Shown here: positions 27,706 to 64,000 of the stretch, one piece after another
How positions within the stretch are numbered: the first letter of the stretch is position 1
How the letters are laid out: every line of letters starts with the position of its first letter
Origin: Methanomassiliicoccales archaeon
Lineage (GTDB): Archaea > Thermoplasmatota > Thermoplasmata > Methanomassiliicoccales > UBA472
Assembly (NCBI GenBank): GCA_035527755.1
Contig: DATKZX010000006.1
Span: forward strand, 26,057-90,056
Reading direction: 5' to 3'
Length of the DNA: 64,000 nt
Made by a program: the position numbers and the translations under genes
The notes under the pieces: model-generated
The model's database searches: none
What the model saw: only the letters and a program-made list of their open reading frames with translations
Told to the model about the DNA's origin: nothing

Positions 27706-27844
27706 CGGCATTCTTGAAAGAGATATCCATTATGCCGACGGGGGCCATTATCGCGATTCGGTCGGGTGGTCAATGCAAATATTCAGGAAACGAGTTAGAT
27801 ACTCAGTATCGAATACTATGTATCGAAAATAATGAGGTCGCCCT

Positions 27845-30042: not shown

Positions 30043-30163
30043 TGCTATATCTACGAGACCACACATGTTTTTTGCGAAGCATTGTTTGCTATCGATAGGG
30101 GGAAATTTCGTATCATCCTAGAGACGAACATCCTGCCCCTGATACCGAACATTTGAACGAGGG

Positions 30164-33679: not shown

Positions 33680-33886
33680 TTACAGATATCTCTTAAAAAA
33701 ACCAAGTATTGATCGAATAACATGGATGATGCTTGAAATTTTATTAGCATATCCCTCAGTATGACCAGTACATATATTAAATAAAATACATAATTAATAT
33801 TCTGTTTCGATTTCTTTCCATTCCATTCAATGAACGAGCTGATGAAAAAGGATAAGTAAATAACCCCGTTCTTACTTTTTACACCT

Positions 33887-34561: not shown

Positions 34562-34733
34562 AATTCTCTGTCATCAGAGAGTGTTACCTTTGAGGACCAG
34601 AGCCACATTGGACCTATTATGACCCTGTGATCATGATTAGGCCGAAGTAGTTACAAATAACATAATCGAATAAACTGATCAACTCTGCGATATTCCAGTG
34701 ACAAACGGGATGATAGTATAAACTTAAAAAAAT

Positions 34734-34760
34734 TGATGCGGGGGAAGGCCCTCGAATACT
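34734..34760 (-). repeat. partial copy of the 3' end (acceptor/T-arm) of tRNA-Leu
   Basis: TGATGCGGGGGAAGGCCCTCGAATACT at 34734 aligns with TGATGGTGCGGGGGAAGGGATTCGAACCCTCGAACCACT at 37091. They share GCGGGGGAAGG (11 nt) and CCCTCGAA (8 nt), in the same orientation. Confidence 0.4.
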
Positions 34761-35241
34761 GAGGTAGCCAGTAATCCTTTAACAATGGTCAATAAGAGGG
34801 TATTTGCATAAATCTTTTATTTTTATTTATGAACAAATATTCTTTTTAGGCTTTGATATATTACTTATTTTACATTAATTTAAAGGTGCAAATGGAGACA
34901 ATACCTCTCTTTTCAGAAGGGCGGATGTGGGCCCGTGCGTTATTGCTAAGCCAGTAAGTATTTTATGAATTTCAATCGAAGATGGAAAATAATGGAAGTG
35001 AAGGTTCGAAGAGAATAGCACGAAATTGTTTACTAGCGGGTTCCGGATCATCTTCTGAACAATGATCGAAATTTCCCTAAGATGTTTGGACGCATGGGGG
35101 GGCGATCTCGACTGAGCCCGCTTCTAATTCCATCGATCGAACTTCCAGTTTGAAGAACAGAGGAGATCTTTTTCGATCCAGGAACTCTCCGATGTTACCG
35201 AAGAATGTATCTGGACCATAAAAAAAATAAAAAGGTTTCGA

Positions 35242-36807
35242 TCAGGGCTGTCCTCCTTTCGGCCCCCTCGTCCTCAGGAAGATCAAGGCGATCGCTGCAA
35301 CGGCCAGGATGATGCCCGTCAAGCAAAGCAGCAGGTAGGTCGTTCCGTCGCTCTCCCGAGCGTCCTGCGCCTCATCCAGGCTCGCCTGCATTGCTGTCAA
35401 ATTCGTCTTCGCTGTTTCCAGGTCGGCTATCGTCTGGTTCAACAAGGTTGAGAGCGCGCTCTTGTCCGCGTTCGACAGCACCAGATCGGACCTCATGATC
35501 GAAGCGTTCGAGTCGGTCGAGTACAGCGAGTCCCTCAGTGAGATGAGCGCCTCCTGCGCCGCCGTCACCTGGTCGATCGCCAATGTCAGGTTCTCGATCG
35601 TGCCGTTCAGCTTGGCATTTACTTCATCGAGGCGCTCGTTGATGGCGTTCAGCTCGTCATTGAGATCGGAGATGTTCTGATCCTGCTCCGAGTTCTCATC
35701 GACATACGTGACGGTGATGCTCGAAGACGCGATGCCTTGCTCAATATCGGATGCCGTTGCCGTTATCGTGTTCGATCCCTCGAGGAGAGGGATGACCACT
35801 GAGAAGTGCCCGTCCGAACCGAGGGACACAACGAATCCATTGATGACCAGGCTTGTTCCCGGGTTTGTGGTGCCGGTCACCTGGATGGTCGGTGAATAGA
35901 CCGTAATGCCCGAAAGCGGGGTCTCTATGGTCACGATCAATGGAGCATAATTTTTTCCGTAGATGTTAGAGGCAGAGCCGTCTTGCTGGTACCATACCGC
36001 CACGGCGTTGTCATCATCGTTCAAGGAGACCTGAGGGCAATAGGCATACCCAGTGCTGTTCCCTAGGAGCGTTACCGTCCCCCAGGCACCGGCGGAGTAC
36101 CGGTTGGCGTAGACGCTAGAGGCAGAGCCGTCATACTGGTACCATACCGCCACGGCGTTCCCTTTATCGTTCAAGGAGACCTGAGGGAGATAGGCATTCC
36201 CAGTGCCGTTCTCCAGGAGCGTTGCCGTCCCCCAGGCACCGGCGGAGTACCAGTTAGCGTAGACACTAGTGTAAGAGCCATCGACCTGTTGCCATACCGC
36301 CAGGGCGTTCCCATCATCGTCCAAGGAGACCTGAGGGTATGAGGCATACCCAGTGCTGTTCTCTAGGAGCGTTGCCGTCCCCCAGGCACCGGCGGAGTAC
36401 CGGTTAGCGTAGACCCTAAGGTAAGAGCCATCGTGCTGTTGCCATACCGCCACGGCGTTCCCATCATCGTCCATGGCGACCTGAGGGTATATGGCATCCC
36501 GAATGTCGTCCTCCAAGAGCGTTGCCGTTCCCCAGGCACCGGCGGAGTACCGGTTGGCGTAGACGCTATAGAAAGAGCCGTCATACTGGTACCATACCAC
36601 CACGGCGTTGCCATCGTCGTCCATGGCGACCTGAGGGTAATAGGCATTCCCCGCGCCAGTCTCCAGGAGCGTTGCCGGGTCCGGCCATCCCGTCCTCGAT
36701 AAGGCCTGTACGTTCGAAGGTACGCCGATGATCGTCAATACAAGGGAGGCCAGTACGATGAATGTAAGCATTCTTTTTGATTCCATATTGATATTTTTAA
36801 TGATCAT
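35242..36807 (-). CDS. secreted/anchored surface protein: signal peptide, five 50-aa repeats, Ig-like segment, coiled coil, C-terminal TM anchor
   Basis: Repeats of YANRYSAGAWGTATLLE......YPQV(A/S)(M/L)DDDGNA(V/L)AVWQQ.DGS. A coiled-coil-like region (NDELNAINERLDEVNAKLNGTIENLTLAIDQ...). C-terminal YLLLCLTGIILAVAAIALIFLRTRGPKGG. Confidence 0.75.
   Translation of the reverse strand: MIIKNINMESKRMLTFIVLASLVLTIIGVPSNVQALSRTGWPDPATLLETGAGNAYYPQVAMDDDGNAVVVWYQYDGSFYSVYANRYSAGAWGTATLLEDDIRDAIYPQVAMDDDGNAVAVWQQHDGSYLRVYANRYSAGAWGTATLLENSTGYASYPQVSLDDDGNALAVWQQVDGSYTSVYANWYSAGAWGTATLLENGTGNAYLPQVSLNDKGNAVAVWYQYDGSASSVYANRYSAGAWGTVTLLGNSTGYAYCPQVSLNDDDNAVAVWYQQDGSASNIYGKNYAPLIVTIETPLSGITVYSPTIQVTGTTNPGTSLVINGFVVSLGSDGHFSVVIPLLEGSNTITATASDIEQGIASSSITVTYVDENSEQDQNISDLNDELNAINERLDEVNAKLNGTIENLTLAIDQVTAAQEALISLRDSLYSTDSNASIMRSDLVLSNADKSALSTLLNQTIADLETAKTNLTAMQASLDEAQDARESDGTTYLLLCLTGIILAVAAIALIFLRTRGPKGGQP
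35950..36700 (-). repeat. 150-bp tandem repeat array (about 5 units) inside the surface protein gene
   Basis: The block GTTGCCGTCCCCCAGGCACCGGCGGAGTACC recurs at ~36081, 36231, 36381 and 36531 (exact 150-bp period), with a degenerate copy near 36661-36680. Long stretches between units are near-identical at the DNA level. Confidence 0.85.
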
Positions 36808-37093: not shown

Positions 37094-37180
37094 TGGTGCG
37101 GGGGAAGGGATTCGAACCCTCGAACCACTAAGGACAGAATCTTAAGTCCTGCGCCGTTGGCCAAGCTTGGCTACCCCCGC
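37094..37180 (-). tRNA. tRNA-Leu (anticodon UAA), long variable arm, genomically encoded CCA
   Basis: The reverse complement reads GCGGGGGTAGCCAAGCTTGGCCAACGGCGCAGGACTTAAGATTCTGTCCTTAGTGGTTCGAGGGTTCGAATCCCTTCCCCCGCACCA. It has a 7-bp acceptor stem, anticodon loop CTTAAGA, a class II variable arm and the T-loop GGTTCGAATCC. Confidence 0.9.
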
Positions 37181-46182: not shown

Positions 46183-47106
46183 ATGAAGCTTTGGGATTTT
46201 AGTAGGGTCAAGGACGGTAAGGTCAGAATAGGGGATAAAATACGCCACCGTGTGGGCTTGGAGGATGGAAGTCAAGTATATTCCACCCTTTTCAGGTACG
46301 AACACAATGGGGCGCGTGGACATGAGATCGTCCTATCCACGTTCGGACCGGAGAACTACCGGGAGCTGTGCAATCTCACTTTCTACATGATCGATTCGCC
46401 TGGCGCCTGCGCTCAGGCGGCCAAGTTCCTGTCCGACCGAAACGTGGACATCCTGAACTCGGTCTCGGTCAGCATGACCTGCGGCATCTCCATGGTCTGG
46501 AAGATGCTGGTGGACCTTTCCTATTACGGAGACTCCACTCAGTTGACGGAGGACTTTGCGGCCATAAGGCGCACCAGCCCCACCGCCCTCTCGAAGGTGG
46601 AGGGACTTGAGATATCCACCTCCCACATCAGCGACCGCTATACCAAAGGTGTCAGTGGCCCTCAGTCCTCGAAGATAACGGCCAAGGCGCTGCGCAAGGT
46701 TTCTCGCTCCCCTTCACCGATAAAGGACGAGAGCTTCCCCATTCCAAAGGATTACCTGGACCAGCTGGAAGGCGTGACCGAGGGTACGCCGGTCATGATG
46801 GTGGGGGACGTGGACTCCTGGGTGCTATCGATGTCATTCCTGCCTGACGACTGTCTGATCGTGGAGATGTCCTTCGAGATCCCGGACAAGCCCGGCGCCA
46901 TTTACCGGGCCACGGAAGCGTTGGCAGCTCAGGACGTCAATCTACTGGCGGTCTCGTCAAGGGTGCTGGTATACGGGCAGAAGATGGCCCTGGACCTGGT
47001 GGCCGATCTGAGCCACGCCGGCGATCTGGACAAGGTGGTCGAGGCGATCTTGACCTCGTTGGGCGGGGAGTTCAAGCTCCGTTCCAAGGGCGTTGTGGTC
47101 TTTTGA
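46183..47106 (+). CDS. hypothetical protein: AbrB/SpoVT-like N-terminus plus two ACT-like domains
   Basis: DGKVRIGDKIRHRVGLEDGSQVYSTL (swapped-hairpin-like). Two beta-alpha-beta-beta-alpha-beta candidates: CNLTFYMIDSPGACAQAAKFLSDRNVDILN and VEMSFEIPDKPGAIYRATEALAAQDVNLLA. Domain calls are inference. Confidence 0.45.
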   Translation: MKLWDFSRVKDGKVRIGDKIRHRVGLEDGSQVYSTLFRYEHNGARGHEIVLSTFGPENYRELCNLTFYMIDSPGACAQAAKFLSDRNVDILNSVSVSMTCGISMVWKMLVDLSYYGDSTQLTEDFAAIRRTSPTALSKVEGLEISTSHISDRYTKGVSGPQSSKITAKALRKVSRSPSPIKDESFPIPKDYLDQLEGVTEGTPVMMVGDVDSWVLSMSFLPDDCLIVEMSFEIPDKPGAIYRATEALAAQDVNLLAVSSRVLVYGQKMALDLVADLSHAGDLDKVVEAILTSLGGEFKLRSKGVVVF

Positions 47107-47116
47107 GGCCTCAAAA

Positions 47117-47884
47117 ATGCTGATAGGCCGCAAGGTACTGGTGAAAGATGAGGTGACCTCCACCAACGAGGTCGCCAGGTCCCTGGCCCTGGAAGGTGAG
47201 CCAGAGGGGACCGTGGTCACGGCCGTCCGCCAGAGCGGAGGGAAAGGGAGGATGGGCCGCCAATGGGAATCACCTGAGGGCGGGGTCTATCTCTCGGTGA
47301 TCCTGCGGCCAGAGCTACCGGCCTCCGACCTTACATTACTAACGGTGATGTCCTGCCTGCCAGTGGCCCAGGCCATCGAGGAGGCCTGCCATTCCGTCCC
47401 GACCATCAAATGGCCGAACGACGTGAAGCTCAAGGGCCGCAAGGTCGCCGGGGTCTTGGTGGAAGCGTGCTACCGCGGCGGCGAGCCGCGATTTCTGATA
47501 TTGGGCATAGGGATCAACCTGAACACTGAACCTGGGCATCTCAGATCGCCGGAGGCGGGCAGCGTGGCCGACCTTTGCGGCAATAACCTGGACCAGGAAC
47601 ATTTCATGAACGTGTTGTTGTTCAAACTGGATGACATGTACGCCAAGTTCAGAAAGGGCGACCGGGACCTCTCCCTGTACGAAAGGTACAGCGAGTCCCT
47701 GGGCAAGGAGGTCGAGGTGAGGTTGGGGGACCAACACGTCAAAGGTAAGGCGATGCACCTGGATGCCGATGGGTCCCTGGTGCTGAGGTCCGATGACGGG
47801 ATGATATATCGAGCGACCTCCATACACGACGTGATCACATTGGACCGCGGACAGGTACGATTTGAAACGGGTAACGTTCATTAG
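47117..47884 (+). CDS. birA: biotin--[acetyl-CoA-carboxylase] ligase
   Basis: VTSTNEVA..., biotin-binding loop QSGGKGRMGRQWESPEGG, KWPNDV. There is no N-terminal HTH, so it is a group I ligase. I prefer ATG 47117, which lies after the upstream stop at 47106. Confidence 0.9.
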   Translation: MLIGRKVLVKDEVTSTNEVARSLALEGEPEGTVVTAVRQSGGKGRMGRQWESPEGGVYLSVILRPELPASDLTLLTVMSCLPVAQAIEEACHSVPTIKWPNDVKLKGRKVAGVLVEACYRGGEPRFLILGIGINLNTEPGHLRSPEAGSVADLCGNNLDQEHFMNVLLFKLDDMYAKFRKGDRDLSLYERYSESLGKEVEVRLGDQHVKGKAMHLDADGSLVLRSDDGMIYRATSIHDVITLDRGQVRFETGNVH

Positions 47885-47912
47885 CTAGGAGCACGAATAA
47901 AGGGGGAGCATC

Positions 47913-49460
47913 ATGGGCGAGGACAAGGTCAAGGAACTTCGGGAAATGAAGAAGCGGTCGAGGGCCGGCGGCGGAGCGGAGCGGGTCGAGATGCACCGCA
48001 TGCAGGGCAAGATGACCGCCCGGGAGAGAGTGGACACTCTGCTGGACCCCGGATCATTCGTTGAACTGGACCCCTTCGTTTCCCACCAGGCCTATCATTT
48101 CGGCATGGAGAAGCAGAAGATGCTTGGGGATGGCGTTGTCACCGGTCATGGGACCATCGAAGGTCAGCAGGTGTTCGTCTATGCCCAGGACTTCACCGTC
48201 TTCGCCGGATCGGTCGGTCGCATGCATGCCCAGAAGATCTGCAAGGTCATCGATCTGGCGATGATGACCGGCTGCCCCATCATCGCGTTGTTCGACTCGG
48301 GCGGGGCTCGTCTGCAGGAGGGCGTGGATTCACTTGCCGGCTACGGAGATGTCATGCTGAAACATACGCTCGCTTCGGGCGTCATACCGCAGATAGCCAT
48401 GGTCATGGGGCCTTGCGCTGGAAGCGGCGTCTACGCCCCGCATCTCTGCGACTTCGTGTTCATGGTGAAGGAAAAAGCGTGCATGTTCATGGTCAGCCCG
48501 GACGTCATCAAGGTGGTGCAGAAAGAGGAAGTGACCTTGGAAGAACTGGGTGGAGCTAGCGTCCACGCTTCCCATACTGGTTCGGCCCACTTCGTGGCCG
48601 AGGACGATATGGACTGCATCAAGCAGGTGCGCAGGCTGCTGGGCTATCTCCCATACAACAATCTGGAACAGCCGCGGAACAAAGCGACGGGCGATGATCC
48701 CGAGCGCCGTGAAGACTCCCTGGACACCATTATTCCAGAGGACCCCATGAAACCATACGATATGAAGGAGGTCGTCCGCAAGATCGTGGACAAGGGGGAG
48801 TTCCTGGAGGTGCATGAACTGTATGCACGTAACATTATCGTGGGCTTCGCCCGCATGGACGGGAGCACGGTCGGCATCGTGGCCAACCAGCCCATGGTAT
48901 TGGCCGGTACGTTGGATACCGGTTCCTCGCTCAAAGCGGCGCGCTTCGTGCGCTTCTGTGATGCTTTCAACATTCCCTTGATAACCTTGGTGGACGTGCC
49001 GGGCTACATGCCCAGCGTGGAGCAGGAGAACTCCTCTCTGCTTCGGGACGCCACCAAGCTTCTGTACGCTTACGCGGAGGCGAGCACCCCCAAGGTGACG
49101 GTCATCACCCGCAAGGCCATAGGCGGCGCCTACTGCGTCATGGGCTCCAAGCATCTGAGGACGGACATCAACCTGGCCTGGCCGACGGCCGAGATCGCCA
49201 TCGTTGGACCTGAGGGTGCCATCAACATCGTTTTCAAGCAGGAACTGATCATGGCCGATGACCCGCAGGAGAAGAGGGACGTGCTCATCTCAGAGTACCG
49301 CAAGCTGTACGCCTCGGCGTTCTTCTCTGCGGAGCGTGGGTATCTGGACGATATTATAGAGCCGAACAACACCCGCATGCGGTTGATCGAAGCCCTGACC
49401 ATGCTGGACCGCAAGCGGGAGAACCGCCCGGCCAAGAAGCACGGCAATATGCCGCTGTGA
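47913..49460 (+). CDS. acyl-CoA carboxyltransferase (propionyl-CoA carboxylase beta / methylmalonyl-CoA carboxyltransferase 12S-type)
   Basis: Two crotonase-like CT halves, DSGGARLQEG, VMGPCAGSGVY, and the C-terminal GGAYCVMG pattern. 515 aa. Confidence 0.9.
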   Translation: MGEDKVKELREMKKRSRAGGGAERVEMHRMQGKMTARERVDTLLDPGSFVELDPFVSHQAYHFGMEKQKMLGDGVVTGHGTIEGQQVFVYAQDFTVFAGSVGRMHAQKICKVIDLAMMTGCPIIALFDSGGARLQEGVDSLAGYGDVMLKHTLASGVIPQIAMVMGPCAGSGVYAPHLCDFVFMVKEKACMFMVSPDVIKVVQKEEVTLEELGGASVHASHTGSAHFVAEDDMDCIKQVRRLLGYLPYNNLEQPRNKATGDDPERREDSLDTIIPEDPMKPYDMKEVVRKIVDKGEFLEVHELYARNIIVGFARMDGSTVGIVANQPMVLAGTLDTGSSLKAARFVRFCDAFNIPLITLVDVPGYMPSVEQENSSLLRDATKLLYAYAEASTPKVTVITRKAIGGAYCVMGSKHLRTDINLAWPTAEIAIVGPEGAINIVFKQELIMADDPQEKRDVLISEYRKLYASAFFSAERGYLDDIIEPNNTRMRLIEALTMLDRKRENRPAKKHGNMPL

Positions 49461-49468
49461 GGGATGAA

Positions 49469-50977
49469 ATGAAGATAAAGATCACCGACACCGTGCTGCG
49501 CGACGCCCACCAATCCCTCCTGGCGACCAGGATGAGGACAGAGGACATGTTGCCTGCCGCCGCCATGCTGGACGAGATAGGCTACTGGTCGGTGGAGATG
49601 TGGGGCGGGGCGACGTTCGATACCTGCCTCCGCTTTCTGCGCGAGGACCCATGGGAGCGCATCACCAAGCTCAAGAAGGCCATGCCCAACACCCCCTTCC
49701 AGATGCTTCTGCGGGGGCAGAACATAGTGGGCTATCGTCATTACTCCGACGACATCCTGGAGAAGTTCGTCAAGAACGCCAAGCGCCGGGGCATAGATGT
49801 CTTCCGCATCTTCGACGCCTTGAACGATCACCGCAACATGCAGATGGCCATGCGCTGCGTGAAGAAGGTGGGAGGAGTGGTCGAGGCCAGCATCTCCTAC
49901 ACCATATCTCCGGTCCATACCATCGAAGGTTACATCAAATTCGCCCGGAAACTTCAGGACATGGGCGCCGACACCATCTGCATCAAGGATATGGCCGGCA
50001 TGTTGGCCCCGATGGACGCCTATGAGCTGGTCAAACAGCTGCGTGAGGAGATCGGTCTGCCGGTCCATATGCACTGCCACGCCACCTCCGGAATGGTCAT
50101 GGGCACCTACATGAAGGCGATCGAGGCCGGGGCGGAGATAGTTGATACGGCGATCTCCAGCTTGAGCCTGGGCACCTCGCAGACGCCCACGGAGGCCGTG
50201 GTTGCCATGCTCAACGGGACGGAATACGATACCGGCCTGGACCTGAAGAAGCTGAAGGAGATAGCCGAGTACTTCAAGACCGTGCGGGTCAAGTACCATG
50301 CGTTCGAGAGCGATTTCACTGGCATCGACACCAACGTCCTGGTGTATCAGATCCCCGGCGGAATGATGTCCAACCTGGCATCCCAGATGAGAGAGGCCAA
50401 GAAGGAGGACAAGATGGCCGAGGTGCTGGAGGAGGTACCGCGGGTGAAGGCGGAACTGGGACACGTTCCTTTGGTAACCCCAACCTCGCAGATAGTGGGC
50501 ACCCAGGCCGTACTGAACGTCATAACCGGCGAGCGTTACAAGATGGTCACCAACGAGACCAAGAACCTGGTCAGGGGGCTCTATGGCAAGACCCCGGCCG
50601 ATATCTCCCCGGAGATCAGGAGGAAGATCATCGGGGACGAAAAGCCCATCACCGTTCGCCCGGCCGATCTTCTGGAGCCGGAGTTCGATAAGCTTTGCAA
50701 GGAGGTCGAGGAGTACGCCTGCAACGAGAAGATGGTCTGCTCCGAGGAGGACGTGCTCTCTTACGCGCTCTTCCCCCCGGTGGCGTTGGACTACTTCAAG
50801 TACCGCCAGATGATGGAGAAGGGCGTCAACCTGAAGGAGCTGGCGGCGGTCGCCGTGCTCTACATGCGGTCCACCGAGAGGCACGCGTCCAACAAGATGT
50901 CCTCGGGCGGGAGCATGGACGCCTGGAAGCTGGTGGCCCGTAAAGAGGCCGTCGGCAAAGGGGGGTGGCCACTGTGA
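49469..50977 (+). CDS. oxaloacetate/pyruvate carboxyltransferase (5S-type; PycB/OadA-like) without a biotinyl domain
   Basis: MKIKITDTVLRDAHQSL..., an HMGL-like TIM barrel (CIKDMAGML, HMHCHATSGM). It ends without an AMKM lipoyl/biotinyl domain. ATG 49469 follows GAGGGATGAA. Confidence 0.85.
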   Translation: MKIKITDTVLRDAHQSLLATRMRTEDMLPAAAMLDEIGYWSVEMWGGATFDTCLRFLREDPWERITKLKKAMPNTPFQMLLRGQNIVGYRHYSDDILEKFVKNAKRRGIDVFRIFDALNDHRNMQMAMRCVKKVGGVVEASISYTISPVHTIEGYIKFARKLQDMGADTICIKDMAGMLAPMDAYELVKQLREEIGLPVHMHCHATSGMVMGTYMKAIEAGAEIVDTAISSLSLGTSQTPTEAVVAMLNGTEYDTGLDLKKLKEIAEYFKTVRVKYHAFESDFTGIDTNVLVYQIPGGMMSNLASQMREAKKEDKMAEVLEEVPRVKAELGHVPLVTPTSQIVGTQAVLNVITGERYKMVTNETKNLVRGLYGKTPADISPEIRRKIIGDEKPITVRPADLLEPEFDKLCKEVEEYACNEKMVCSEEDVLSYALFPPVALDYFKYRQMMEKGVNLKELAAVAVLYMRSTERHASNKMSSGGSMDAWKLVARKEAVGKGGWPL

Positions 50978-51477
50978 AGCTGCGCATGACCGTCAACGGC
51001 CACGAATACGAGGTGACGGTGGAGAAGAACGGCGGTGACTACCGTGTGGACGTGGAGGACCACGTCTTCAAGTGCATTTTCAAAGAGGAAAAGGTCCTGG
51101 TGAACGGAGAGCTCGTCCCACTGACCATCGAGGGCGATCTGGAGTCCGGGGCCAAGATAACGGCCGAGGACCACACCATGGAGCTGAAGCTGCAGCAGGT
51201 GCGGGAGATCGAACACTTCTCGATAGAGGAGGTCGTTGAAGGTGCCAAGAGCGAGGGAAGTTCCGGAGCGGTGCTGTCCCCGATGCCCGGTAAGATCATG
51301 GCCGTCAAGGTGAAGGCCGGCGATACGGTTCAGGCCAACCAGGTCGTGGTAGTGCTGGAGGCCATGAAGATGGAGAACGAGGTCCAGTGCGAGACCGCGG
51401 GTAAGGTCAAGGACGTCAAGGTCCGGGCCGGTGAGACCGTGGAAGGCGGGCAGGTACTGCTGGTCATAGAGGCTTAA
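50974..51477 (+). CDS. biotin carboxyl carrier protein (1.3S-type), extended
   Basis: C-terminal biotinyl domain SPMPGKIMAVKVKAGDTVQANQVVVVLEAMKMENEV. The N-terminus VKLRMTVNGHEYEVTVE resembles 1.3S MKLKVTVNG. The GTG at 50974 overlaps the 5S stop. Alternative starts are GTG 50965 and ATG 50986. Confidence 0.8.
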   Translation: MKLRMTVNGHEYEVTVEKNGGDYRVDVEDHVFKCIFKEEKVLVNGELVPLTIEGDLESGAKITAEDHTMELKLQQVREIEHFSIEEVVEGAKSEGSSGAVLSPMPGKIMAVKVKAGDTVQANQVVVVLEAMKMENEVQCETAGKVKDVKVRAGETVEGGQVLLVIEA

Positions 51478-56009: not shown

Positions 56010-57605
56010 TCAGCGTACCGTGGTCCGGCTTTGCTGCCTCATGTATCGGGTCAGATACATGCCCGTACCGCTACCGAGTCCGGTAGAACCTGATGCTTTC
56101 CAACCGCCGAAGGGCTGCGCCCCCACCATGGCACCGGTGGTCGCGCCGCGGGCACGATTGGCATAGCTCAATCCGGCCTCGATGTTCTCAAAGAAGTAAT
56201 TGACCTCTTCCGGATCGAGCGAGTATATGCCTGATGTCAGACCGTAATCCACATCATTGGCTCGGCGCACCGCATCCTTCAGGTCGGTGAACCGCTGCAC
56301 GCAGAGGATCGGCAGGAAAAGCTCGTTCTTGATCAGATAGTTATCTTCGGGCAGGCTGCTGACCACCGTTGGCATGACGAAGTGACCTTTGGCCAGCTCC
56401 GGGGACGGAGCCTTATCCCCACCCGTGTGCACGATCCCGTCCCTTTGGGCCAGGGAGATGTAGGACAGGTAGTCGTCCACCGCCTTCTGGTGGATTACCG
56501 GTCCCATGAACGTGCCTTTCTCCCGGGGGTCCCCCACCTTCATGCGAGAGATGAACATCAACAGTGAGACCATGAAATCGTCGTAGACCAGTTCATGGAC
56601 ATAGGCCCTGGAGCAGGCGCTGCACTTCTGACCGCTGAAGCTGAAGGCCGATAAGGCCACGCCGGCGACCGCTCGCGCCAGGTCCGCCTTCTCGGTCACG
56701 ATGGCCGGGTTCTTGCCTCCCAGCTCAGTGATGACCGGTATAGGTTTTCGGCGCAATGATGATGCCAGCAGCTTGAAGCCCACCTCCTTGGAACCTGTGA
56801 AGGCGATGCCTTCGATCTTCTCATTGGAGACCAGGGCCTCACCGGCCGTCGAACCTGATCCAGACAGTAGATTGATGACCCCGGGGGGCACGCCTGCACG
56901 CTCATAGATATCGTACAGCATGTGCACCGCCAACGGCGCGGGCGTCGAGGGCTTCAGCACGGCGGTGTTCCCGGTGATGATGGCCGCGGTGAGCATGCCG
57001 GTGGAAATGGCGATGGGAAAGTTGAAGGGGCAGATCACTGCCCACACCCCATAGGGACGCATGACACTGATCGGCCTCTCATCTGGATACGCCGCCGGTC
57101 TCTTCTCGGTGAATCCGTTGCGTCTCTTCATCTGCTCCGCGTAATAGGAAATGAAATCGATGGCCTCGTCCACCTCGCCGACCGCCTCATAACGGTTCTT
57201 TCCGTTGTCGAACGTCACCGCCGCGGCGATCTCAAAAAGCTCCCTGCGCATGATCTCAGCGGCCTTGTGAAATATCACCAGCCTCTTGTCCAGGTCCATC
57301 ACGGACCAGGCCTGATACGCCCTATTGGCGGAATCGATGGCCATGGACGCCTCTTTCTTTCCCCCTGACGAGAACTCTCCGATGACCATCCCGGTATCGA
57401 TCGGGCTGGTGTCGGTGAAATATTTACCTGTGGAGACCGGCCTGCCGTCGATCATGCTCTCGTACTTGCTAGCCACGTCTAAGGACTGGGCGAACCTCTC
57501 TACCGCCCTTTCATACCTGGTGTGAAATGAGGCTTCCTCCCCATCTTTGACCATGATCTCGTAAGTGTTCTGATTCTTGAAGGTCACGCCTGTCTCCTCC
57601 ATCAT
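56010..57605 (-). CDS. aldehyde dehydrogenase family, L-glutamate gamma-semialdehyde (1-pyrroline-5-carboxylate) dehydrogenase-like
   Basis: ELGGKNPAIV, catalytic FSGQKCSACSR, EAIDFISYYAEQM, and a C-terminal PFGGWKASGS. These parallel RocA/PruA-type enzymes. 531 aa. Confidence 0.7.
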   Translation of the reverse strand: MMEETGVTFKNQNTYEIMVKDGEEASFHTRYERAVERFAQSLDVASKYESMIDGRPVSTGKYFTDTSPIDTGMVIGEFSSGGKKEASMAIDSANRAYQAWSVMDLDKRLVIFHKAAEIMRRELFEIAAAVTFDNGKNRYEAVGEVDEAIDFISYYAEQMKRRNGFTEKRPAAYPDERPISVMRPYGVWAVICPFNFPIAISTGMLTAAIITGNTAVLKPSTPAPLAVHMLYDIYERAGVPPGVINLLSGSGSTAGEALVSNEKIEGIAFTGSKEVGFKLLASSLRRKPIPVITELGGKNPAIVTEKADLARAVAGVALSAFSFSGQKCSACSRAYVHELVYDDFMVSLLMFISRMKVGDPREKGTFMGPVIHQKAVDDYLSYISLAQRDGIVHTGGDKAPSPELAKGHFVMPTVVSSLPEDNYLIKNELFLPILCVQRFTDLKDAVRRANDVDYGLTSGIYSLDPEEVNYFFENIEAGLSYANRARGATTGAMVGAQPFGGWKASGSTGLGSGTGMYLTRYMRQQSRTTVR

Positions 57606-57681: not shown

Positions 57682-57689
57682 TTTATATT
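57682..57689 (+). promoter_or_regulatory. TATA-box-like element upstream of acsB
   Basis: TTTATATT lies in the 80-bp divergent spacer after the P5CDH start (57605). It overlaps the TTG at 57688 that the ORF track uses as the start. Confidence 0.35.
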
Positions 57690-57783
57690 GGCGGGAACTC
57701 GATGGTACCTTATCGAGCTCGGAGAGGTTCCCTTGACCCATACCCACGATAGATCCGGACCGTTGGCAGCTGGCGATATCCTT

Positions 57784-60699
57784 ATGATCGCACGAACGGA
57801 GCGGAAGCGCTTGCTTACCATGCTGGAAAACGTGGAAGGTGGAAACGTGGTAAGGGAATCGGTGCGTCGGGTGGTTGAGGGAACGAGCCCGGACGACCTT
57901 TGGACCGCCGACCTGGGAAAGATATTGGACCTGGTTAACCGTGACCTGGCCAAAGCGACGGGTTGCGAACCGATGGCTTTGAGGGAGAAGAGGACCTGGG
58001 AGCAGGCTGGGCTACTGGCACCGTTGACGGACGTTCCTCGAGGAGAGGCCTACGATCTGTTGCTGGGTGCCCGCGAATCCTTAGCCTGCTCCATCCTCAA
58101 TTGGTGCTTGAGGGCGCTAAAGGCGTGCCCTGAAGAGATAGATGCCTTGCCGGAACTGCGACAACAGTTGCGGGAGGGAGAGGTCCGAGGATCGCTCCTG
58201 GAAGAGCACGGAGGGACGTGGTGCCTTCGCACCACGGACGATGGCCCGGTACAGCTCGAAGGTCGTCCGGCCCAGGTAATCGCCGCCTTCATGGACATGC
58301 GCCGAGAATTAGCCAGGGAATTAGGTTCGGCGACGGCCCATCTACCCCTGGCCATGAGCACCGGGGATCTGCCCTTGGCCATCGGCCAAGCGTTGATGGG
58401 GTTCCCTGTGCTGCTGACAGACCTCACCCTCGATCCCCTGGCGAAGGAGTTCCTCACCAACACCATGCGAGATCTCTTCCAGGGATCGCTCCTGAGCAGC
58501 GAGGATGACCTGAACAGGGAGATGGAGCGCCGCCGATGGTTGAGCGGGCTGCCCCATCGATACGACCCTCCGTCCCCGGTCGGGGTCAGTAACGTGCAGA
58601 TCATCGCCTCGGGCTTCCAGGGAGCGGAGCTGCTGTTGGCTCTGGCCATGATAGCCGTTCTCTCGACGATCCAGAGGAGGGGAGATGTCCCGGTCGAGTA
58701 TCCTGAGACGGGTTACTCCCTGCCATGCATCCTGGGTTGGGACGGGACGGAGGTCGGCAATGCCAGGGAACTGCTGGACGTGGTGAGAAGGTATTCCAAC
58801 CTGCCAAAGGAGAGGAGCCTGGCCGCGGCGCTGACAGCCGGGCGCTCGGTCCTGATCGCCGTCGAGGCCTTGGAAGCGTTGCGCTATCTGGACGGGGACC
58901 CACACATCGGCTCCTCCACCGTGGGCTTCATCCCGGACAAGGTCCTCAGAGAGCTGGGACTGGCCTTCGTGGACGATACCATCCCCGGAGCGGCCGTGCT
59001 CATGGGCATCCCACATGACCGCAGGCAGCTGGTGACCACCGTCAGAGAGCTGCAGGCGCGGGGATTGCTCATCATGGCCGCGGACGAGGTGGTGCAGGTA
59101 CTGCAGGAGAACGAGGTGCAGATGGGGCTGGAGATGATGCTCTATCCGCTGGGTAACTTCACCCAGCTGGTGCATTCATTGGATTTCCTGACCCGGGCCG
59201 CGCTTTCGTTCGGGGGGGTGCAGAAGGGGGACGCGGAACGGTTGTCCGCCTACTTGGCCAAGAGACCTAAGGCGTTCGTGCTGCACTTTGGACCTCTGGA
59301 CTCCTGCCGGGCGGCCATGGCGCTGGCGGCGCTGACGCACGGGGTACCCATCATCACCGACCAGGAGGTGGAGGGCGTGCCGGACCTTCTGTTCCACAAG
59401 GAACCCCAACATATGCTCCAGGGGGGTCTGGAATCACGAGACATTCGCGTGGCGGTGACCATGGTGGACATCCCCGTGCCTTTCGGACCGGCGTTCGAAG
59501 GGGAGACCGTCCGTCGACCGGACACCTATCTGGAAGCGGGTGGGGGACGGACTCCGTCCTTTGAGCTTCTACGCAGGAGATCGGAGGACGAGGTCCGCGA
59601 CGGAGAGGTTCTCGTCCTGGGACCGGAGGTGGATCAGATGGCCGAAGGCTCACAGACGCCCATGGCCATACTGGTGAACGTCTTCGGCAAACGCATGCAG
59701 GAGGATTTCGAATCGGTCATGGAAAGGCGGATACACCTCTACCTGAACTTCGCCGAGGGAGTATGGCACACCGGGCAGCGCAACATGAATTGGCTAAGAA
59801 TTAGCAAGAAAGCACGTAGGGCGGGTTTCCGCCTGGAGCATCTGGGACGCATCTTGGTCACCAAATTGAAGGAGGAGTTCGGTAACATCGTCTCCAGAGT
59901 ACAGATCATCATAATCACCGATGAGAAGGAGATCGAGCGCCGTCTGCCCGAGGCCCTGAGGGTATATCAGGAGAGGGAGGAGCGCATGGCCGGACTGACC
60001 GACGACAGCGTGGACACCTTCTATTCCTGCCTCATGTGCCAGTCGTTCGCCCCGGACCATGTGTGCGTGATAACGCCGGAGCGTCTGGGGCTCTGCGGGG
60101 CCATCAACTGGCTGGACGCTAAGACCGGCAAGGAGATCGTTCCGTCCGGACCCAACCAGCCCATAGCAAAGGGGGAGCCAGAGGACCTGGAGAAAGGATC
60201 TTGGAAGGGAGTGAACGAGGCGGTGACGGCCTTGACCCGCGGAAAGATATCCCGTTTCTGCGCCTACAGCATGATGGAGGACCCCATGACCTCCTGCGGA
60301 TGTTTCGAGTGCATCGCGGCCATGAGCCCGGACATGCAGTCGGTGATAGTGGTGAGCCGGGAGTTCCCAGACATGACCCCATTGGGCATGAAGTTCTCCA
60401 CCTTGGCCGGTTCCATCGGCGGGGGCCGGCAGACCCCGGGGTTCATCGGTATCGGTCGTCGTTACCTGATCAGTAAGAAGTTCATAACCGGGGACGGTGG
60501 GTTCCTGCGCATATCCTGGATGCCTTCCTCTTTGAAGAACAGCATGAGGGAAGAGCTTATTAATAGGGCCACGGAATTGGGAATGCCAGACTTTCTGGAC
60601 AGGGTGGCGGACGAGACGACCGTCACCGACGCGGAAGGACTGATGAACTGGATGATCAAGGTGGACCACCCCGCCTTGAGAATGCCCTCGTTGCTTTGA
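57784..60699 (+). CDS. acsB: acetyl-CoA synthase, bacterial AcsB architecture, with an additional unassigned N-terminal extension
   Basis: A-cluster ligands CLMCQSFAPDHVCVITPERLGLCG (ORF codons 781/784/793/803, from 60028) and the Cys-Gly-Cys in MTSCGCFEC (60295-60303). N-terminal-domain matches to Moorella AcsB (YPLGNFTQLVHS, VPFGPAFEGE, WHTGQRNMNWLR). The ORF is open from 57688. The first in-frame ATG is 57784. The canonical-length start would be ATG 58522. Confidence 0.9.
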   Translation: MIARTERKRLLTMLENVEGGNVVRESVRRVVEGTSPDDLWTADLGKILDLVNRDLAKATGCEPMALREKRTWEQAGLLAPLTDVPRGEAYDLLLGARESLACSILNWCLRALKACPEEIDALPELRQQLREGEVRGSLLEEHGGTWCLRTTDDGPVQLEGRPAQVIAAFMDMRRELARELGSATAHLPLAMSTGDLPLAIGQALMGFPVLLTDLTLDPLAKEFLTNTMRDLFQGSLLSSEDDLNREMERRRWLSGLPHRYDPPSPVGVSNVQIIASGFQGAELLLALAMIAVLSTIQRRGDVPVEYPETGYSLPCILGWDGTEVGNARELLDVVRRYSNLPKERSLAAALTAGRSVLIAVEALEALRYLDGDPHIGSSTVGFIPDKVLRELGLAFVDDTIPGAAVLMGIPHDRRQLVTTVRELQARGLLIMAADEVVQVLQENEVQMGLEMMLYPLGNFTQLVHSLDFLTRAALSFGGVQKGDAERLSAYLAKRPKAFVLHFGPLDSCRAAMALAALTHGVPIITDQEVEGVPDLLFHKEPQHMLQGGLESRDIRVAVTMVDIPVPFGPAFEGETVRRPDTYLEAGGGRTPSFELLRRRSEDEVRDGEVLVLGPEVDQMAEGSQTPMAILVNVFGKRMQEDFESVMERRIHLYLNFAEGVWHTGQRNMNWLRISKKARRAGFRLEHLGRILVTKLKEEFGNIVSRVQIIIITDEKEIERRLPEALRVYQEREERMAGLTDDSVDTFYSCLMCQSFAPDHVCVITPERLGLCGAINWLDAKTGKEIVPSGPNQPIAKGEPEDLEKGSWKGVNEAVTALTRGKISRFCAYSMMEDPMTSCGCFECIAAMSPDMQSVIVVSREFPDMTPLGMKFSTLAGSIGGGRQTPGFIGIGRRYLISKKFITGDGGFLRISWMPSSLKNSMREELINRATELGMPDFLDRVADETTVTDAEGLMNWMIKVDHPALRMPSLL

Positions 60700-60710
60700 G
60701 GTGTATGTAA

Positions 60711-61661
60711 ATGGCGAACGTACCGTTGCCCAAGGAGAAATGGACAGGTTCCATAGGAGAGCTGGAACTGGGGAACCCCCAGGATAAGGGAGGTTCCCGT
60801 CGCCCGGTGAAGCTGGGTGGCAATCGAGGCATGCCCTTCCTGTCCTTCGAGGACGGCGAGCGTCGGATGATCGCCATGGCTGGACTGGTGGCCGACTCCC
60901 TGGAGGATGTGCCTCAGCCGGTACGGGACGCTTTCGGTGACGACGCTGAGGACCCGGTGCGCTGGGCGAGAGCGTGGGCGGCCCGCGGCGCCGACCTGAT
61001 ATGTCTTCGTCTGACATCCACCAACCCTGAGGAAGGGGACGCGTCCCCGGAGAGCGCGGCGGACACAGTCATGGCGGTCCTGAAGGCGGTGGACCTGCCG
61101 CTGATCGTCTACGGCAGCGGGCACGAGGAGAAGGACTCCAAGGTGCTGGAGAAAGTGGGCGAGAGGGCCAGGGGCGAGCGTCTGCTTCTGGGACACGCGG
61201 AGGAGAGCGCCTATAAGTCCGTGGCCGCCGCGGCCATGGCCAACGGCCACGCGGTGATCGGGTTCTCCAACCTGGACATCAACCTTGCCAAACAGATCGT
61301 GATTCTGCTCACCGATTTCGGGGTGGGTAAGGGCGACATCATGATCGACCCGCTCATGGCCGCCCTGGGCATGGGACTGGAATATTCCTACTCGGTCAAC
61401 GAACGCATCAGGATATCGGCGCTCTCGGGCGACAGCATGCTGCGGGTGCCCATGATCTGTGACTGCACCTCCGCCTGGAAAGCTCGTGAGGCCACGGACG
61501 ACGTTCCCCATGCCGGCGATACCCTGGAGAGAGGGATCTGGTGGGAGGCGACCACTGCCTTGGCCGCCCTGCTGTCGGGCGCGGACGTCCTGGTGCTCGG
61601 TCACCCCGAGGCCATGGAGCTCGCTCGGACGGCCGTTTCGGACCTGGGGGGTGAGGACTGA
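60711..61661 (+). CDS. acsD: corrinoid iron-sulfur protein small subunit (AcsD-type)
   Basis: 316 aa TIM-barrel subunit: KGGSRRPVKLGG, ADLICLRL, DLPLIVYGSG, LLLGHAEESAYKS, IDPLMAALGMGLEYSYSVNERIR. Collinear with Moorella AcsD as I recall it. Confidence 0.85.
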   Translation: MANVPLPKEKWTGSIGELELGNPQDKGGSRRPVKLGGNRGMPFLSFEDGERRMIAMAGLVADSLEDVPQPVRDAFGDDAEDPVRWARAWAARGADLICLRLTSTNPEEGDASPESAADTVMAVLKAVDLPLIVYGSGHEEKDSKVLEKVGERARGERLLLGHAEESAYKSVAAAAMANGHAVIGFSNLDINLAKQIVILLTDFGVGKGDIMIDPLMAALGMGLEYSYSVNERIRISALSGDSMLRVPMICDCTSAWKAREATDDVPHAGDTLERGIWWEATTALAALLSGADVLVLGHPEAMELARTAVSDLGGED

Positions 61662-62986
61662 TGGCCACGGCGATCGAGATTTTCAAACACCTGCCCAAGA
61701 AGAACTGCGGGGAATGCAAGTACCCCACCTGCCTGGCCTTCGCCATGCAGCTGGCCAACAACAAGGCCAAGCTCGATGACTGCCCCCACATGAGCGAGGC
61801 CGGTCGGAACGCCTTGGCCAGCTCATCCGCTCCGCCCATACGGTTAGTGCGCATCGGCACGGGAAGGAACATAGTGGAGATGGGGGACGAGACGGAACTG
61901 TACCGTCACGACAAGCGTTTCTTCCACCCTACCGCCTTCGCGCTGCGGGTAAGCGATGACCTGAGCATCGAAGAGCTGGAGAAGAAGGTCGATCACGCCC
62001 GCTCCTTGCACTTCGAGAGGGTGGGTCAGGTGCTCAAGTTCGACATCGTGGAGGTAGAATGCCGATCCGGAGACGGAGTGAGGTACGTACAGACCCTCGA
62101 CCGTGTCTCCGAGTTGGTAGACTGGCCACTGGTGCTGCGCTGCCGCGACCCGGTCATAATGTCCGCCGCCGCCAACCGGATGAGGGAACGGAGGCCCCTG
62201 TTGCACGGTGCCGACCCTGACAACATCAAGGAGATGGTGGTGACGTCCAAAAGCTCGGGATGCCCGCTGGTCCTCTGCTCTGATGACCTGGGGAAGCTGG
62301 CCGACATGGTAGAAATAGCTCGCAAAGAAGGCGTGGAGGACCTGGTGCTTGACCCGATGCCCGGGAACATGAAGGACATGCTGGAGCGGTGCACGATCAT
62401 CCGGCGCAGCGCCATCCGCAAGACCTTCCGTGGACTGGGGTACCCTATCTACATGGGCATGCCCGTTGGGAAGAACGGCATGCTGATGGCCCTGACAGCG
62501 GTCATGAAGTACGGCAGCCTGCTCTCGTTCGAAGAGATGCCATCATCACAGGCACTGCCGCTCCTGGTACTGAGACAGAACATCTACACAGACCCTCAGG
62601 TGCCCATACAGGTCAAGCCTGATCTGTACCCGGTGAACAACCCCGGGGCTGATGCTCCGATCCTCTTCACCACCAATTTCTCGCTCACCTATTTCACCGT
62701 GCTCTCGGACATCGAGAAGAGCAAGGTGCCTGTATGGCTGCAGGTGGTGGACACGGAGGGTCTCTCCGTGCTCACGGCCTATTCCGCGGGAAAGCTGACC
62801 GCCGACGGTGTGAGGAACGCGCTCGAGGCCAGCGGCGCTAACGGTAGATCGAACAGAGGCGTGCTGGTGATCCCGGGCATGGTGGCCCGGATGAGCGTCA
62901 AATTGAACGAGAGCACCGGACTGCAGATCGTCGTCGGACCCAAGGAATCCTCCGGCCTGCCCAAGTTCCTGAGGTCCATGAGCTGA
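61661..62986 (+). CDS. acsC: corrinoid iron-sulfur protein large subunit (AcsC-type)
   Basis: N-terminal [4Fe-4S] motif CGECKYPTCLAFAMQLANNKAKLDDC (CX2CX4CX16C). 441 aa. The start overlaps the acsD stop by 1 nt (TGATG). Confidence 0.85.
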   Translation: MATAIEIFKHLPKKNCGECKYPTCLAFAMQLANNKAKLDDCPHMSEAGRNALASSSAPPIRLVRIGTGRNIVEMGDETELYRHDKRFFHPTAFALRVSDDLSIEELEKKVDHARSLHFERVGQVLKFDIVEVECRSGDGVRYVQTLDRVSELVDWPLVLRCRDPVIMSAAANRMRERRPLLHGADPDNIKEMVVTSKSSGCPLVLCSDDLGKLADMVEIARKEGVEDLVLDPMPGNMKDMLERCTIIRRSAIRKTFRGLGYPIYMGMPVGKNGMLMALTAVMKYGSLLSFEEMPSSQALPLLVLRQNIYTDPQVPIQVKPDLYPVNNPGADAPILFTTNFSLTYFTVLSDIEKSKVPVWLQVVDTEGLSVLTAYSAGKLTADGVRNALEASGANGRSNRGVLVIPGMVARMSVKLNESTGLQIVVGPKESSGLPKFLRSMS

Positions 62987-63059: not shown

Positions 63060-64000
63060 ATGCAACAAGGACCATATGACCCAAATCAAGGCGGCCCTCC
63101 GCAATATCAGGGACCGCAGCCGGGACCACAGCAATGGCCCCAGCAAAACCCTCCGAACCAATATCAGCAGGATCAACCGAACCAGTACCAGCAAGGGCCG
63201 AACCAGCAGTATCAGCCCTACCCGCCGTACCAACCGCCCAAGAAGAAACGCAACATGAAGTTGGTGGTGGCCGCGGTCGCCGTCGTGGCGATACTTCTGG
63301 TCGCCTCCATGGCCGTGCTGTTCTGGCCCACTGACGCCAACGGTGATGATCTTCCGGCCCATGAGGTCATACCGAAGATCATCGACATCGGCAGCTTGGT
63401 GACCGCCGCCACTGGCACCATCGGGTCGCTCGGCGGATCGATCTCCGTGAACAACCTGGCTAGCGCCGTGAACGGACTACGGATAGAGGTGCCCCAGGGA
63501 GCACTGGAATCTCCGGTGGACTTTGACATCAGATCCGCCGTGGTCAATGCCGCCCAGGGACTGCCTGACACCGGAAAGATCGTCAGCCGGATGATATCCA
63601 TTGAAACGGACGGAACGAGCGATTGGGATGTCTTCAGGATGTTCGATAAGGTGCTCACTGTCACCCTGCCATACGATGACTCGTTGGTCACCGATGAAGA
63701 AGGGGTGCGTTTCTATCAATATGACGCGGAGAACCAGAAGCTGGAACCGACCGGGTTCCTGTGGCAGGACATGATCGCCAATACCATCACCTTCAATTCC
63801 GCCACCTTCTCCAAGTTCGTGGCCGTCGAATTGGCCATGAGCATATTCGAGGACATGAACTCCAGCTTCGCCGTGGACACTGGCTTCAGACCGAATAACG
63901 ATGGATGGTTCATTCCGAACTACGGCTCCTACCTGGAGAACGGTGGACTATGCCTAGGCATGGTCTCCTACGCCAAATGGTACTACACCTATCACAATAC
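63060..64000 (+). CDS. hypothetical single-pass membrane protein with a Pro/Gln/Asn/Tyr-rich N-terminal region (3' end beyond the window)
   Basis: Own translation from ATG 63060 (GGTGA upstream): MQQGPYDPNQGGPPQYQGPQPGPQQWPQQNPPNQYQQDQPNQYQQGPNQQYQPYPPYQPPKKKRN, then MKLVVAAVAVVAILLVASMAVLFW, then a soluble domain that is still open at 64000. Confidence 0.6.
   Translation, partial: MQQGPYDPNQGGPPQYQGPQPGPQQWPQQNPPNQYQQDQPNQYQQGPNQQYQPYPPYQPPKKKRNMKLVVAAVAVVAILLVASMAVLFWPTDANGDDLPAHEVIPKIIDIGSLVTAATGTIGSLGGSISVNNLASAVNGLRIEVPQGALESPVDFDIRSAVVNAAQGLPDTGKIVSRMISIETDGTSDWDVFRMFDKVLTVTLPYDDSLVTDEEGVRFYQYDAENQKLEPTGFLWQDMIANTITFNSATFSKFVAVELAMSIFEDMNSSFAVDTGFRPNNDGWFIPNYGSYLENGGLCLGMVSYAKWYYTYHN

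Follow-up and report, generated by a model that had tools for sequence, protein, structure and literature searches.

A bacterial-type acetyl-CoA synthase with a putative carbon monoxide dehydrogenase remnant in a Methanomassiliicoccales archaeon

Described systems and the acs genes of the window

The combination of carbon monoxide dehydrogenase (CODH) with acetyl-CoA synthase (ACS) is among the oldest carbon-fixing machines and is usually described as two tightly coupled enzymes joined by a CO tunnel. The ACS of Carboxydothermus hydrogenoformans can exist and act without bound CODH. We analyzed a stretch of 64,000 nucleotides (the window) from a Methanomassiliicoccales archaeon (assembly GCA_035527755.1, contig DATKZX010000006.1, positions 26,057 to 90,056 of the forward strand), which contains the three genes acsB, acsD and acsC. 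The contig of the window (ENA ERZ27256828 k141_4363979, locus L005, 99.6 kb) was also read beyond the window end. The operon very probably encodes a bacterial-type ACS with a non-catalytic CODH remnant from a former single-chain fusion, together with a two-subunit corrinoid iron-sulfur protein (CFeSP).

The bacterial reference system is that of Moorella thermoacetica (AcsA/B/C/D, PDB-entries 1oao and 4djd). Our locus shares with it a full-length AcsB core, the sizes of AcsC and AcsD and the presence of RACo and a CooC-type ATPase nearby. Unlike Moorella, it has no separate AcsA, an apparent CODH stump without ligands being fused to AcsB instead; AcsE is missing, a MetE-like protein is encoded in the cluster, and the host is an archaeon. 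The monomeric ACS of C. hydrogenoformans (PDB-entry 1ru3) is likewise of bacterial type, but this organism still encodes a partner CODH and several others, and its ACS has no fused remnant. The archaeal acetyl-CoA decarbonylase/synthase (ACDS, CdhABCDE, e.g. from Methanosarcina, PDB-entry 9c0s) has a homologous catalytic C-terminal half and also uses a corrinoid protein. Its CdhC lacks the N-terminal domain, however, its subunits CdhD and CdhE have greater lengths (432–442 versus 313 aa in the NCBIfam models) and its CODH consists of CdhA/B; none of these features is found here.

Two further systems were compared with the locus. Single-chain CooS-AcsB fusions occur in the same cluster with the same gene order, are 55–60% identical to the window protein over AcsB and share the junction motif E-x-ERRRW-x2-GL-x-H-x-Y. 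They comprise ~1360 aa, carry all ligands of the B-, C- and D-clusters and have CooT and CooC encoded upstream, whereas the N-terminus of the window protein is helical and unlike theirs. Earlier mention of such fusions is limited to a supplementary table, in which a CooS "fused with ACDS beta subunit" is given for two metagenome-assembled genomes (MAGs) of RBG Euryarchaeota (Inoue et al. 2019, Suppl. Table 1). In Dehalococcoides mccartyi (Zhuang 2014; Deobald 2020, PMC7005905), AcsB and AcsCD cleave acetyl-CoA and release CO without CODH and AcsE, and the corrinoid protein has been proposed to pass its methyl group to a core-MetE of 343 aa (PMC7005905). Our locus resembles this system in having ACS and CFeSP without a functional linked CODH or AcsE and in a short MetE-type candidate for the methyl outlet. 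It differs in its archaeal host, in that the loss of CODH is visible as a fused fossil and in that the MetE-like gene lies inside the cluster. With Dehalococcoides as a precedent, an ACS/CFeSP module without linked CODH, which was one of two readings offered by the initial annotation of the window, is still viable.

At the level of pathways, earlier studies have reported CODH/ACS genes from environmental Methanomassiliicoccales and from their relatives (Speth & Orphan 2018, PMC6147122; Zinke et al.; Cozannet et al. for CdhDE). A description of the vestigial-CODH form, of repeated CODH loss or of the MetE-like cluster gene was not found in the open-access literature.

The three genes are co-directional, with a spacing of 11 nt between acsB and acsD and an overlap of 1 nt between acsD and acsC, at the positions and with the gaps initially annotated. 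The operon comprises the following features (residues of AcsB are numbered from position 57688):

57682–57689, + strand: TATA-like box TTTATATT 5' of acsB, putative, read from the sequence
57722–57729, + strand: Shine-Dalgarno-like GGAGAGGT, 3 nt 5' of the TTG at 57733
57733–60699, + strand: acsB, bacterial-type ACS with N-terminal extension, 988 aa (open frame from 57688, 1003 aa)
57760–58182, + strand: helical part of the extension, residues ~25–165 (helices at 28–162 in the AlphaFold2 model, pLDDT ~90)
58183–58572, + strand: putative vestigial C-terminal subdomain of Ni,Fe-CODH (CooS) and junction helix, residues ~166–295, no cluster ligands
58618–60696, + strand: AcsB core, domains A1–A3 (Pfam CODH_A_N 58675–58890, CdhC 59470–59934, ACS_CODH_B_C 59965–60693)
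60028–60096, + strand: motif of the A-cluster [4Fe-4S] and bridging cysteine, CLMCQSFAPDHVCVITPERLGLC, including the F512-equivalent residue
60295–60303, + strand: Cys-Gly-Cys nickel-binding motif of the A-cluster
60711–61661, + strand: acsD, small subunit of CFeSP, 316 aa
61661–62986, + strand: acsC, large subunit of CFeSP, 441 aa
62995–63001, + strand: T7 run immediately 3' of the acsC stop, read from the sequence, probably an archaeal oligo-T terminator

The start of acsB varies among gene callers (962, 978 or 988 aa). The most likely start codon is the TTG at 57733, because it is preceded by GGAGAGGT and the resulting N-terminus of the 988-aa protein agrees with that of the 94% identical homologue P0001, whereas the first in-frame TTG at 57688 overlaps the TATA-like box. 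A scan for sigma-70 promoters and intrinsic terminators returned nothing relevant, as expected for an archaeon.

Judged by its matches, the trio is of bacterial type, although it resides in an archaeon. AcsB matches the bacterial-type model NF040764 with 886 bits (cutoff 800) and NF007078 with 880 bits (cutoff 809), and these models cover only residues ~305–1003 of the open reading frame (ORF). Residues 12–727 of the Moorella ACS (1oao_C) align end to end with this core (720 bits), and the C. hydrogenoformans enzyme scores 676 bits. Methanosarcina CdhC (9c0s_E, 343 bits), in contrast, aligns only with the C-terminal ~400 residues (578–982). Together with the CODH_A_N match this bears out the proposal that AcsB keeps the ~300-aa N-terminal domain (A1) that is missing from archaeal CdhC. 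The motifs YPLGNFTQ and VPFGPAFEGE were located in the protein, and all ligands of the A-cluster (Cx2Cx8Cx9C plus Cys-Gly-Cys) are present. The equivalents of F229, a residue of the CO alcove whose role has been described (PMC11321310), and of F512 are conserved, along with the A-cluster ligands, alike in fused, vestigial and CODH-less AcsB classes. With A-cluster, CO alcove and all three domains retained, the ACS half of the protein is evidently intact.

AcsD (NF003376, 329 bits, cutoff 280) has the small subunit of the Moorella CFeSP (4djd_D) as best PDB match. AcsC (NF003195, 517 bits, cutoff 306) contains an FeS domain with an N-terminal CX2CX4CX16C motif at 61706–61783 as well as a CdhD-type barrel and matches 2h9a_A best. 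For both proteins the matches in the PDB were bacterial CFeSP subunits only, which agrees with the bacterial sizes noted before.

The N-terminal extension of AcsB

The window AcsB had been taken for a plain protein of ~700 aa. This description has to be revised, since the frame encodes 988–1003 aa and the N-terminus carries ~295 extra, conserved residues that include the putative CODH remnant. The extension is shared by 22 homologues of 940–1009 aa (69–94% identity at 93–99% query coverage), the named ones being from Methanomassiliicoccales archaeon. Strongly conserved motifs run through its whole length, and conservation at the protein level was seen in more than 25 homologues. AlphaFold2 yielded a model of the extension with a pLDDT of 85 and a pTM of 0.84. 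For two relatives with a window-type extension, L001 (on a 1.96-Mb contig) and L047 (MAG OWC_0010), the ratio of nonsynonymous to synonymous substitution rates (dN/dS) is 0.12 for the whole extension, 0.15 for the helical part and 0.08 for the CODH remnant, compared to 0.05–0.08 for the AcsB domains. The remnant is under purifying selection.

Several comparisons connect the second part of the extension with CODH. A BLASTP alignment with the CooS-AcsB fusion P0025 (1373 aa) is continuous from residue 207 to 1003 of the query (556–1372 of the subject) and thus enters the CODH part of the fusion. In distant homologues of the P0025 type (1358–1373 aa), AcsB is preceded in the same chain by a complete Prismane/CODH domain. 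An hhalign comparison of the extension with CooS gave a probability of 97.3% (E = 2.5e-11), and a profile of 123 CooS sequences gave 95.7% (E = 8.9e-9). When the model of the extension was compared with the PDB by Foldseek, the top 50 matches were all Ni,Fe-CODHs, with ~110 aligned columns and an r.m.s.d. of 2.5–3.0 Å. A search of 1.84 billion representative proteins with the extension profile found the 1141-aa protein P0162, the match falling on its Pfam-Prismane stretch (E = 7e-11). This search gave four matches and did not reach bona fide CooS at library-wide E-values; the extended-AcsB family is evidently narrow. Against PDB sequences the profile matched CODH from R. rubrum weakly (E = 0.21), which is not significant alone. 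The Pfam model Prismane/CODH (PF03063) has no match in the window protein, compared to 540 bits in the fusion P0025 and 181 bits in P0162.

The helical part behaves differently. Residues 1–168 gave no signal with CooS profiles or with the intermediate P0162 (hhalign probability 0.1–0.2%), and although this part is conserved, no homologue was detectable outside the extended-AcsB family.

All positions equivalent to H261, C295, C333, C446, C476 and C526 as well as the cysteines of the B- and D-clusters are deleted or substituted in the window protein. Homologues fall into the following classes with respect to these ligands:

Full fusions and free CooS (P0025, P0026, P0042, P0041; P0043, P0044): B/D-cluster cysteine motif, His261 and Cys295, 333, 446, 476 and 526 all conserved
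Truncated (P0162): last three cysteines conserved, no N-terminal motif and no middle domain
Decayed (P0024, P0036): segments retained, cysteines lost
Window type (window protein and close homologues): all ligand positions lost

The final ~110–130 residues of the extension evidently descend from Ni,Fe-CODH, as a relic of the family and not as an enzyme. Judged from the ligand positions, the CODH function of this remnant is lost.

Relatives, gene neighborhood and origin

Species representatives of GTDB were scanned and their ORFs classified (80 GTDB loci), and synteny was analyzed with a tblastn panel. Four arrangements were found:

CooS and AcsB in a single ORF of ~1357–1385 aa, every CODH and ACS motif present: Methanomassiliicoccales, Methanomassiliicoccaceae, Thermoplasmata and "Euryarchaeota RBG", ~20 species
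Adjacent, separate cooS and acsB: other Thermoplasmata, Firmicutes
AcsB of normal length that lacks a CODH part as well as a neighboring cooS: several MAGs of Methanomassiliicoccus
AcsB with window-type extension: L047 (MAG OWC_0010) and L001 (contig of 1.96 Mb)

The single-ORF fusions are those of the GTDB loci L009–L023, L025, L026 and L030 as well as P0025, P0026 and P0029. Synteny of the cluster extends over more than 40 loci, including ~20 full single-ORF fusions, with the conserved order (CooT-CooC)..ACT-(CooS~AcsB)-AcsD-AcsC-AcsF-like ATPase-MetE-like methyltransferase..RACo. Relatives that are 73–94% identical share PRC-barrel and response-regulator genes upstream and the ATPase, methyltransferase and RACo genes downstream. 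Intact fusions are flanked by the CooT-CooC pair, which did not appear within 10 kb of the extension loci. In L032 and L040–L044 (MAGs of Methanomassiliicoccus sp.), an AcsB of ~690–750 aa directly follows the ACT-domain gene, and in some of them a CooT can still be recognized upstream; here the CODH half has evidently been deleted cleanly from the same cluster. An intein with a homing endonuclease interrupts the AcsB/fusion ORF in L029 (10001–15670, a frame of 1896 aa), and intein Pfam domains occur in P0028.

Neighbor joining of AcsB core sequences placed those from archaea, which span Methanomassiliicoccales and Thermoplasmata, in a single clade. This clade is sister to AcsB from Firmicutes and does not branch inside archaeal Cdh clades. 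Both the extension clade, with P0024 as its sister, and the AcsB-only group are nested within the fusions. Separate positions were found for P0162 and for the pair P0033/P0036, which suggests several independent decays of CODH with ACS and CFeSP being kept.

The archaeal setting described initially is confirmed by RadA, UbiA/DGGGPS and PcrB/GGGPS in the window and, on the contig a short way upstream, by ribosomal L44e and S27e together with aIF2alpha. As to the absence of CODH, methyltransferase and maturation genes, only a part of the earlier statement stands. Among 40 window ORFs that were screened there is no Pfam match to Prismane (CODH), Pterin_bind (AcsE) or CbiA (CooC); AcsE is also missing from up to 10 kb downstream on the contig, ~84 kb of which revealed no CODH. 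An ATPase, a MetE-like methyltransferase and RACo, however, are located on the same contig 1.8–7 kb beyond the window end, and the apparent lack of maturation genes is therefore an effect of the window edge. In 3' direction from acsC the contig encodes a PQ-rich protein of 705 aa, a membrane protein of 148 aa, the ATPase of 252 aa, the MetE-like protein of 343 aa, a methyltransferase together with a radical SAM protein, and RACo with 636 aa. Two genes of this group are located as follows:

L005 14931–15962, − strand, ~3.3–4.3 kb beyond the window end: MetE-like zinc methyltransferase (343–346 aa; L001 16463–17503, L003 17183–18220)
L005 17509–19419: RACo (Fer2 and RACo domains), 636 aa; NF040756 (AcsV) 567 bits (exception-level cutoff 800, not reached)

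The 252-aa ATPase belongs to the CbiA family and has the CooC-type motif GPGCYC (CxC); among NCBIfam models it matches only generic MinD/ParA entries. It is 52–54% identical to the ATPase downstream of ACS, compared to 31% for the CooC beside CooT. Based on the CxC motif and the orthology to the ATPase downstream of ACS, it is predicted to be a nickel-insertion ATPase of the CooC/AcsF type. The 343-aa protein is a single barrel with the zinc motifs of MetE (HCCGN...PQCGLGG) and matches PRK00957, the model of a short archaeal methionine synthase, weakly. Its AlphaFold2 model (pLDDT 90) retrieved MetE as the top Foldseek match, followed by an MtaA-like methyltransferase from Methanosarcina. We regard this protein as a candidate for the CFeSP methyltransferase. 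In nearly all acs clusters of Methanomassiliicoccales the MetE-like gene adjoins the AcsF-like ATPase, and these clusters are without AcsE. At 11233–12363 (− strand) the window encodes a member of the URO-D family that weakly resembles the methylcobamide:coenzyme M (CoM) methyltransferases MtaA/CmuA, which hints at corrinoid-dependent methyl transfer in the host.

Both flanks of the operon are as initially described, a divergent gene similar to pyrroline-5-carboxylate (P5C) dehydrogenase and a PQ-rich protein:

56010–57605, − strand: aldehyde dehydrogenase, similar to P5C/glutamate-semialdehyde dehydrogenase, divergent and outside the system
63060–64000, + strand, continuing past the window end: PQ-rich membrane/surface protein (705 aa on the contig)

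The aldehyde dehydrogenase is missing from the equivalent position in L001 and L047, and relative to the same two loci the PQ-rich protein is interposed between acsC and the AcsF-like ATPase. Compared with these relatives, both genes are evidently species-specific insertions into the cluster. Further upstream in the window, an ACT-domain gene (46183–47106) is followed at 47093–51477 (+ strand) by genes for a biotin ligase, a carboxyltransferase, an OADA/PYC-type subunit and a biotin carrier, which by annotation form a biotin-dependent (de)carboxylase set. This set is syntenic with L001. Since in fused-type loci the ACT gene is directly upstream of cooS-acsB, the 5' side of the cluster appears to have been rearranged in the window lineage.

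Other parts of the window are apart from the acs cluster. The region 26000–36000 has a GC content of 0.44–0.48, compared to 0.55–0.60 elsewhere, and contains several ORFs without Pfam match as well as a TauE exporter, a flavodoxin and a DUF116 protein; with a tRNA-Leu nearby (37094–37180), this low-GC stretch may be a genomic island. A radical SAM protein (9276–10652, − strand) adjoins a DUF169 protein (8086–8859, + strand) and an AMP-binding enzyme (6556–8007, − strand). The name of its Pfam zinc-ribbon domain had pointed to methanopterin biosynthesis; this assignment was dropped, because NCBIfam identifies the protein as TrsS (equivalog, 529 bits, cutoff 490). Two surface-type proteins are encoded at 19180–25497 (− strand), one of 1354 aa with at least nine fibronectin type III repeats and one of 699 aa with PKD domains.

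Proposed reaction and competing explanations

Based on the sequence comparisons and the models we propose the following scheme for the operon. In the window lineage the fused CODH half would have lost its N-terminal and middle domains and all ligands of the B-, C- and D-clusters. Sister lineages keep the single-chain CooS-AcsB in the same cluster, and here the remnant would have been retained as a structural pseudo-enzyme domain, perhaps for dimerization or for the support of domain A1. As A-cluster, CO alcove and the three domains are intact, the ACS is expected to catalyze the reaction CH3-Co(III)-CFeSP + CO + CoA <-> acetyl-CoA + Co(I)-CFeSP, without a CO2/CO step in cis. The methyl group would be exchanged between CFeSP and a thiol donor or acceptor via the MetE-like methyltransferase, instead of a pterin and AcsE. 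This enzyme would probably be the point of methyl entry or exit that replaces AcsE.

The direction of the reaction is the least certain part of this proposal. We slightly favor cleavage of acetyl-CoA, which would, as in Dehalococcoides, provide methyl groups and release CO as a by-product, but this preference is tentative. Synthesis with CO from an unlinked CODH could also be the physiological direction and should be kept in mind as a realistic option. In a wider and rather doubtful scenario, the operon would belong to a pterin-free carbonyl module of environmental Methanomassiliicoccales, in which ACS/CFeSP and the MetE-like protein exchange methyl groups with CoM or homocysteine and from which several lineages have independently discarded CODH. 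Such a CODH-independent acetyl-CoA decarbonylase/synthase would be an archaeal convergence with Dehalococcoides.

Several points weigh against a CODH-free ACS with a fused remnant. The first ~140 helical residues of the extension are without detectable CODH homology, and only part of the extension is, by our comparisons, demonstrably a CODH relic. The AcsB trees were calculated by neighbor joining without bootstrap support, so the number of CODH losses is provisional. The MetE-like methyltransferase family also occurs in Methanomassiliicoccales without ACS, and it is thus only adjacency that links the protein to the cluster. Methyl groups are ample in methyl-reducing methanogens, which weakens the rationale for cleavage. 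Finally, other Methanomassiliicoccales, namely RumEn M1 and M2, encode a free-standing CooS of 620 aa (clade E-2; Inoue et al. 2019, supplement), and an unlinked CODH of clade E may supply or remove CO.

The last point leads to the most serious competing explanation, in which CODH is complete but encoded elsewhere, as a free CooS (e.g. of clade E) or as CdhA. CO would then reach ACS by diffusion or docking, and the system would be an anabolic acetyl-CoA synthase that uses methylotrophic methyl groups. In addition to the free-standing enzymes, the conserved F229 alcove residue and A-cluster fit an ACS that binds CO at low concentration, and the plentiful supply of methyl groups and reduced ferredoxin in methyl-reducing methanogens counts in the same direction. 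Against this, no CODH was detected over the ~84 kb of the contig, and the CooT-CooC pair could not be found within 10 kb of the extension loci. None of the best 120 of 7718 CooS homologues lies on a large contig with an extended AcsB, and no second CooS locus was found in the MAGs with extension or AcsB only among the 80 GTDB loci, although both of these tests are of low sensitivity. The repeated loss of the fused CODH is also easier to explain if ACS works independently of CODH. We consider an unlinked CODH quite possible, if somewhat less than probable.

The other reading of the initial annotation, a recent horizontal acquisition with the acs trio as a foreign island, is very unlikely. The three proteins are indeed closest to bacterial enzymes, and the GC content of the trio (0.60–0.65) is slightly above the window mean. 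The comparison of codon usage with the neighboring genes, which had been suggested at the outset, showed however that the G+C content at third codon positions of the trio (0.72–0.82) is in the range of its neighbors (0.66–0.85). The same cluster and neighbors occur in the 73–94% identical relatives, the cluster extends with conserved synteny across Methanomassiliicoccales and Thermoplasmata, and the archaeal sequences fall into one clade. The same arrangement was moreover assembled independently in at least four samples and on the 1.96-Mb contig of a relative, so that a chimeric contig, against which the initial annotation had cautioned, can be rejected along with recent transfer. An artefact of this kind, or an over-extended ORF with its true start near residue 300, could be suspected because a GC content of ~61% permits long chance frames and the gene callers disagree on the start. 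The conservation of the extension in more than 25 homologues, its confident AlphaFold2 fold and the purifying selection leave this with a practically negligible probability. It is also scarcely credible that the module in its entirety has become a non-functional relic and has been decaying since CODH was lost. The CODH half has clearly decayed, but the frames are intact, dN/dS is low throughout (0.05–0.12 for the AcsB domains and the extension as a whole), the catalytic motifs are kept in each CODH-less class, and neither the maturation ATPase nor RACo has been lost. It is plausible that the archaeal AcsB clade as a whole has an ancient bacterial origin; the acquisition from bacteria looks ancient and lineage-wide, with vertical inheritance since then.

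If the operon does encode an ACS with a CODH remnant, a fusion of the two enzymes would have come first, and its CODH half would then have been destroyed, apparently more than once, while ACS, CFeSP, the ATPase and the activator were kept under strong selection. This makes it possible to test how ACS functions without CODH, what purpose a dead CODH domain serves and whether a pterin-free methyl route via a MetE-type enzyme exists. The intact fusion of ~1360 aa is in turn a ready-made single-polypeptide CODH-ACS for engineering. In MAGs of Methanomassiliicoccales, genes of the kind described here are easily scored as "CODH/ACS present" or as "partial carbonyl branch", and such scoring affects whether autotrophy or acetate use is inferred for wetland methanogens.

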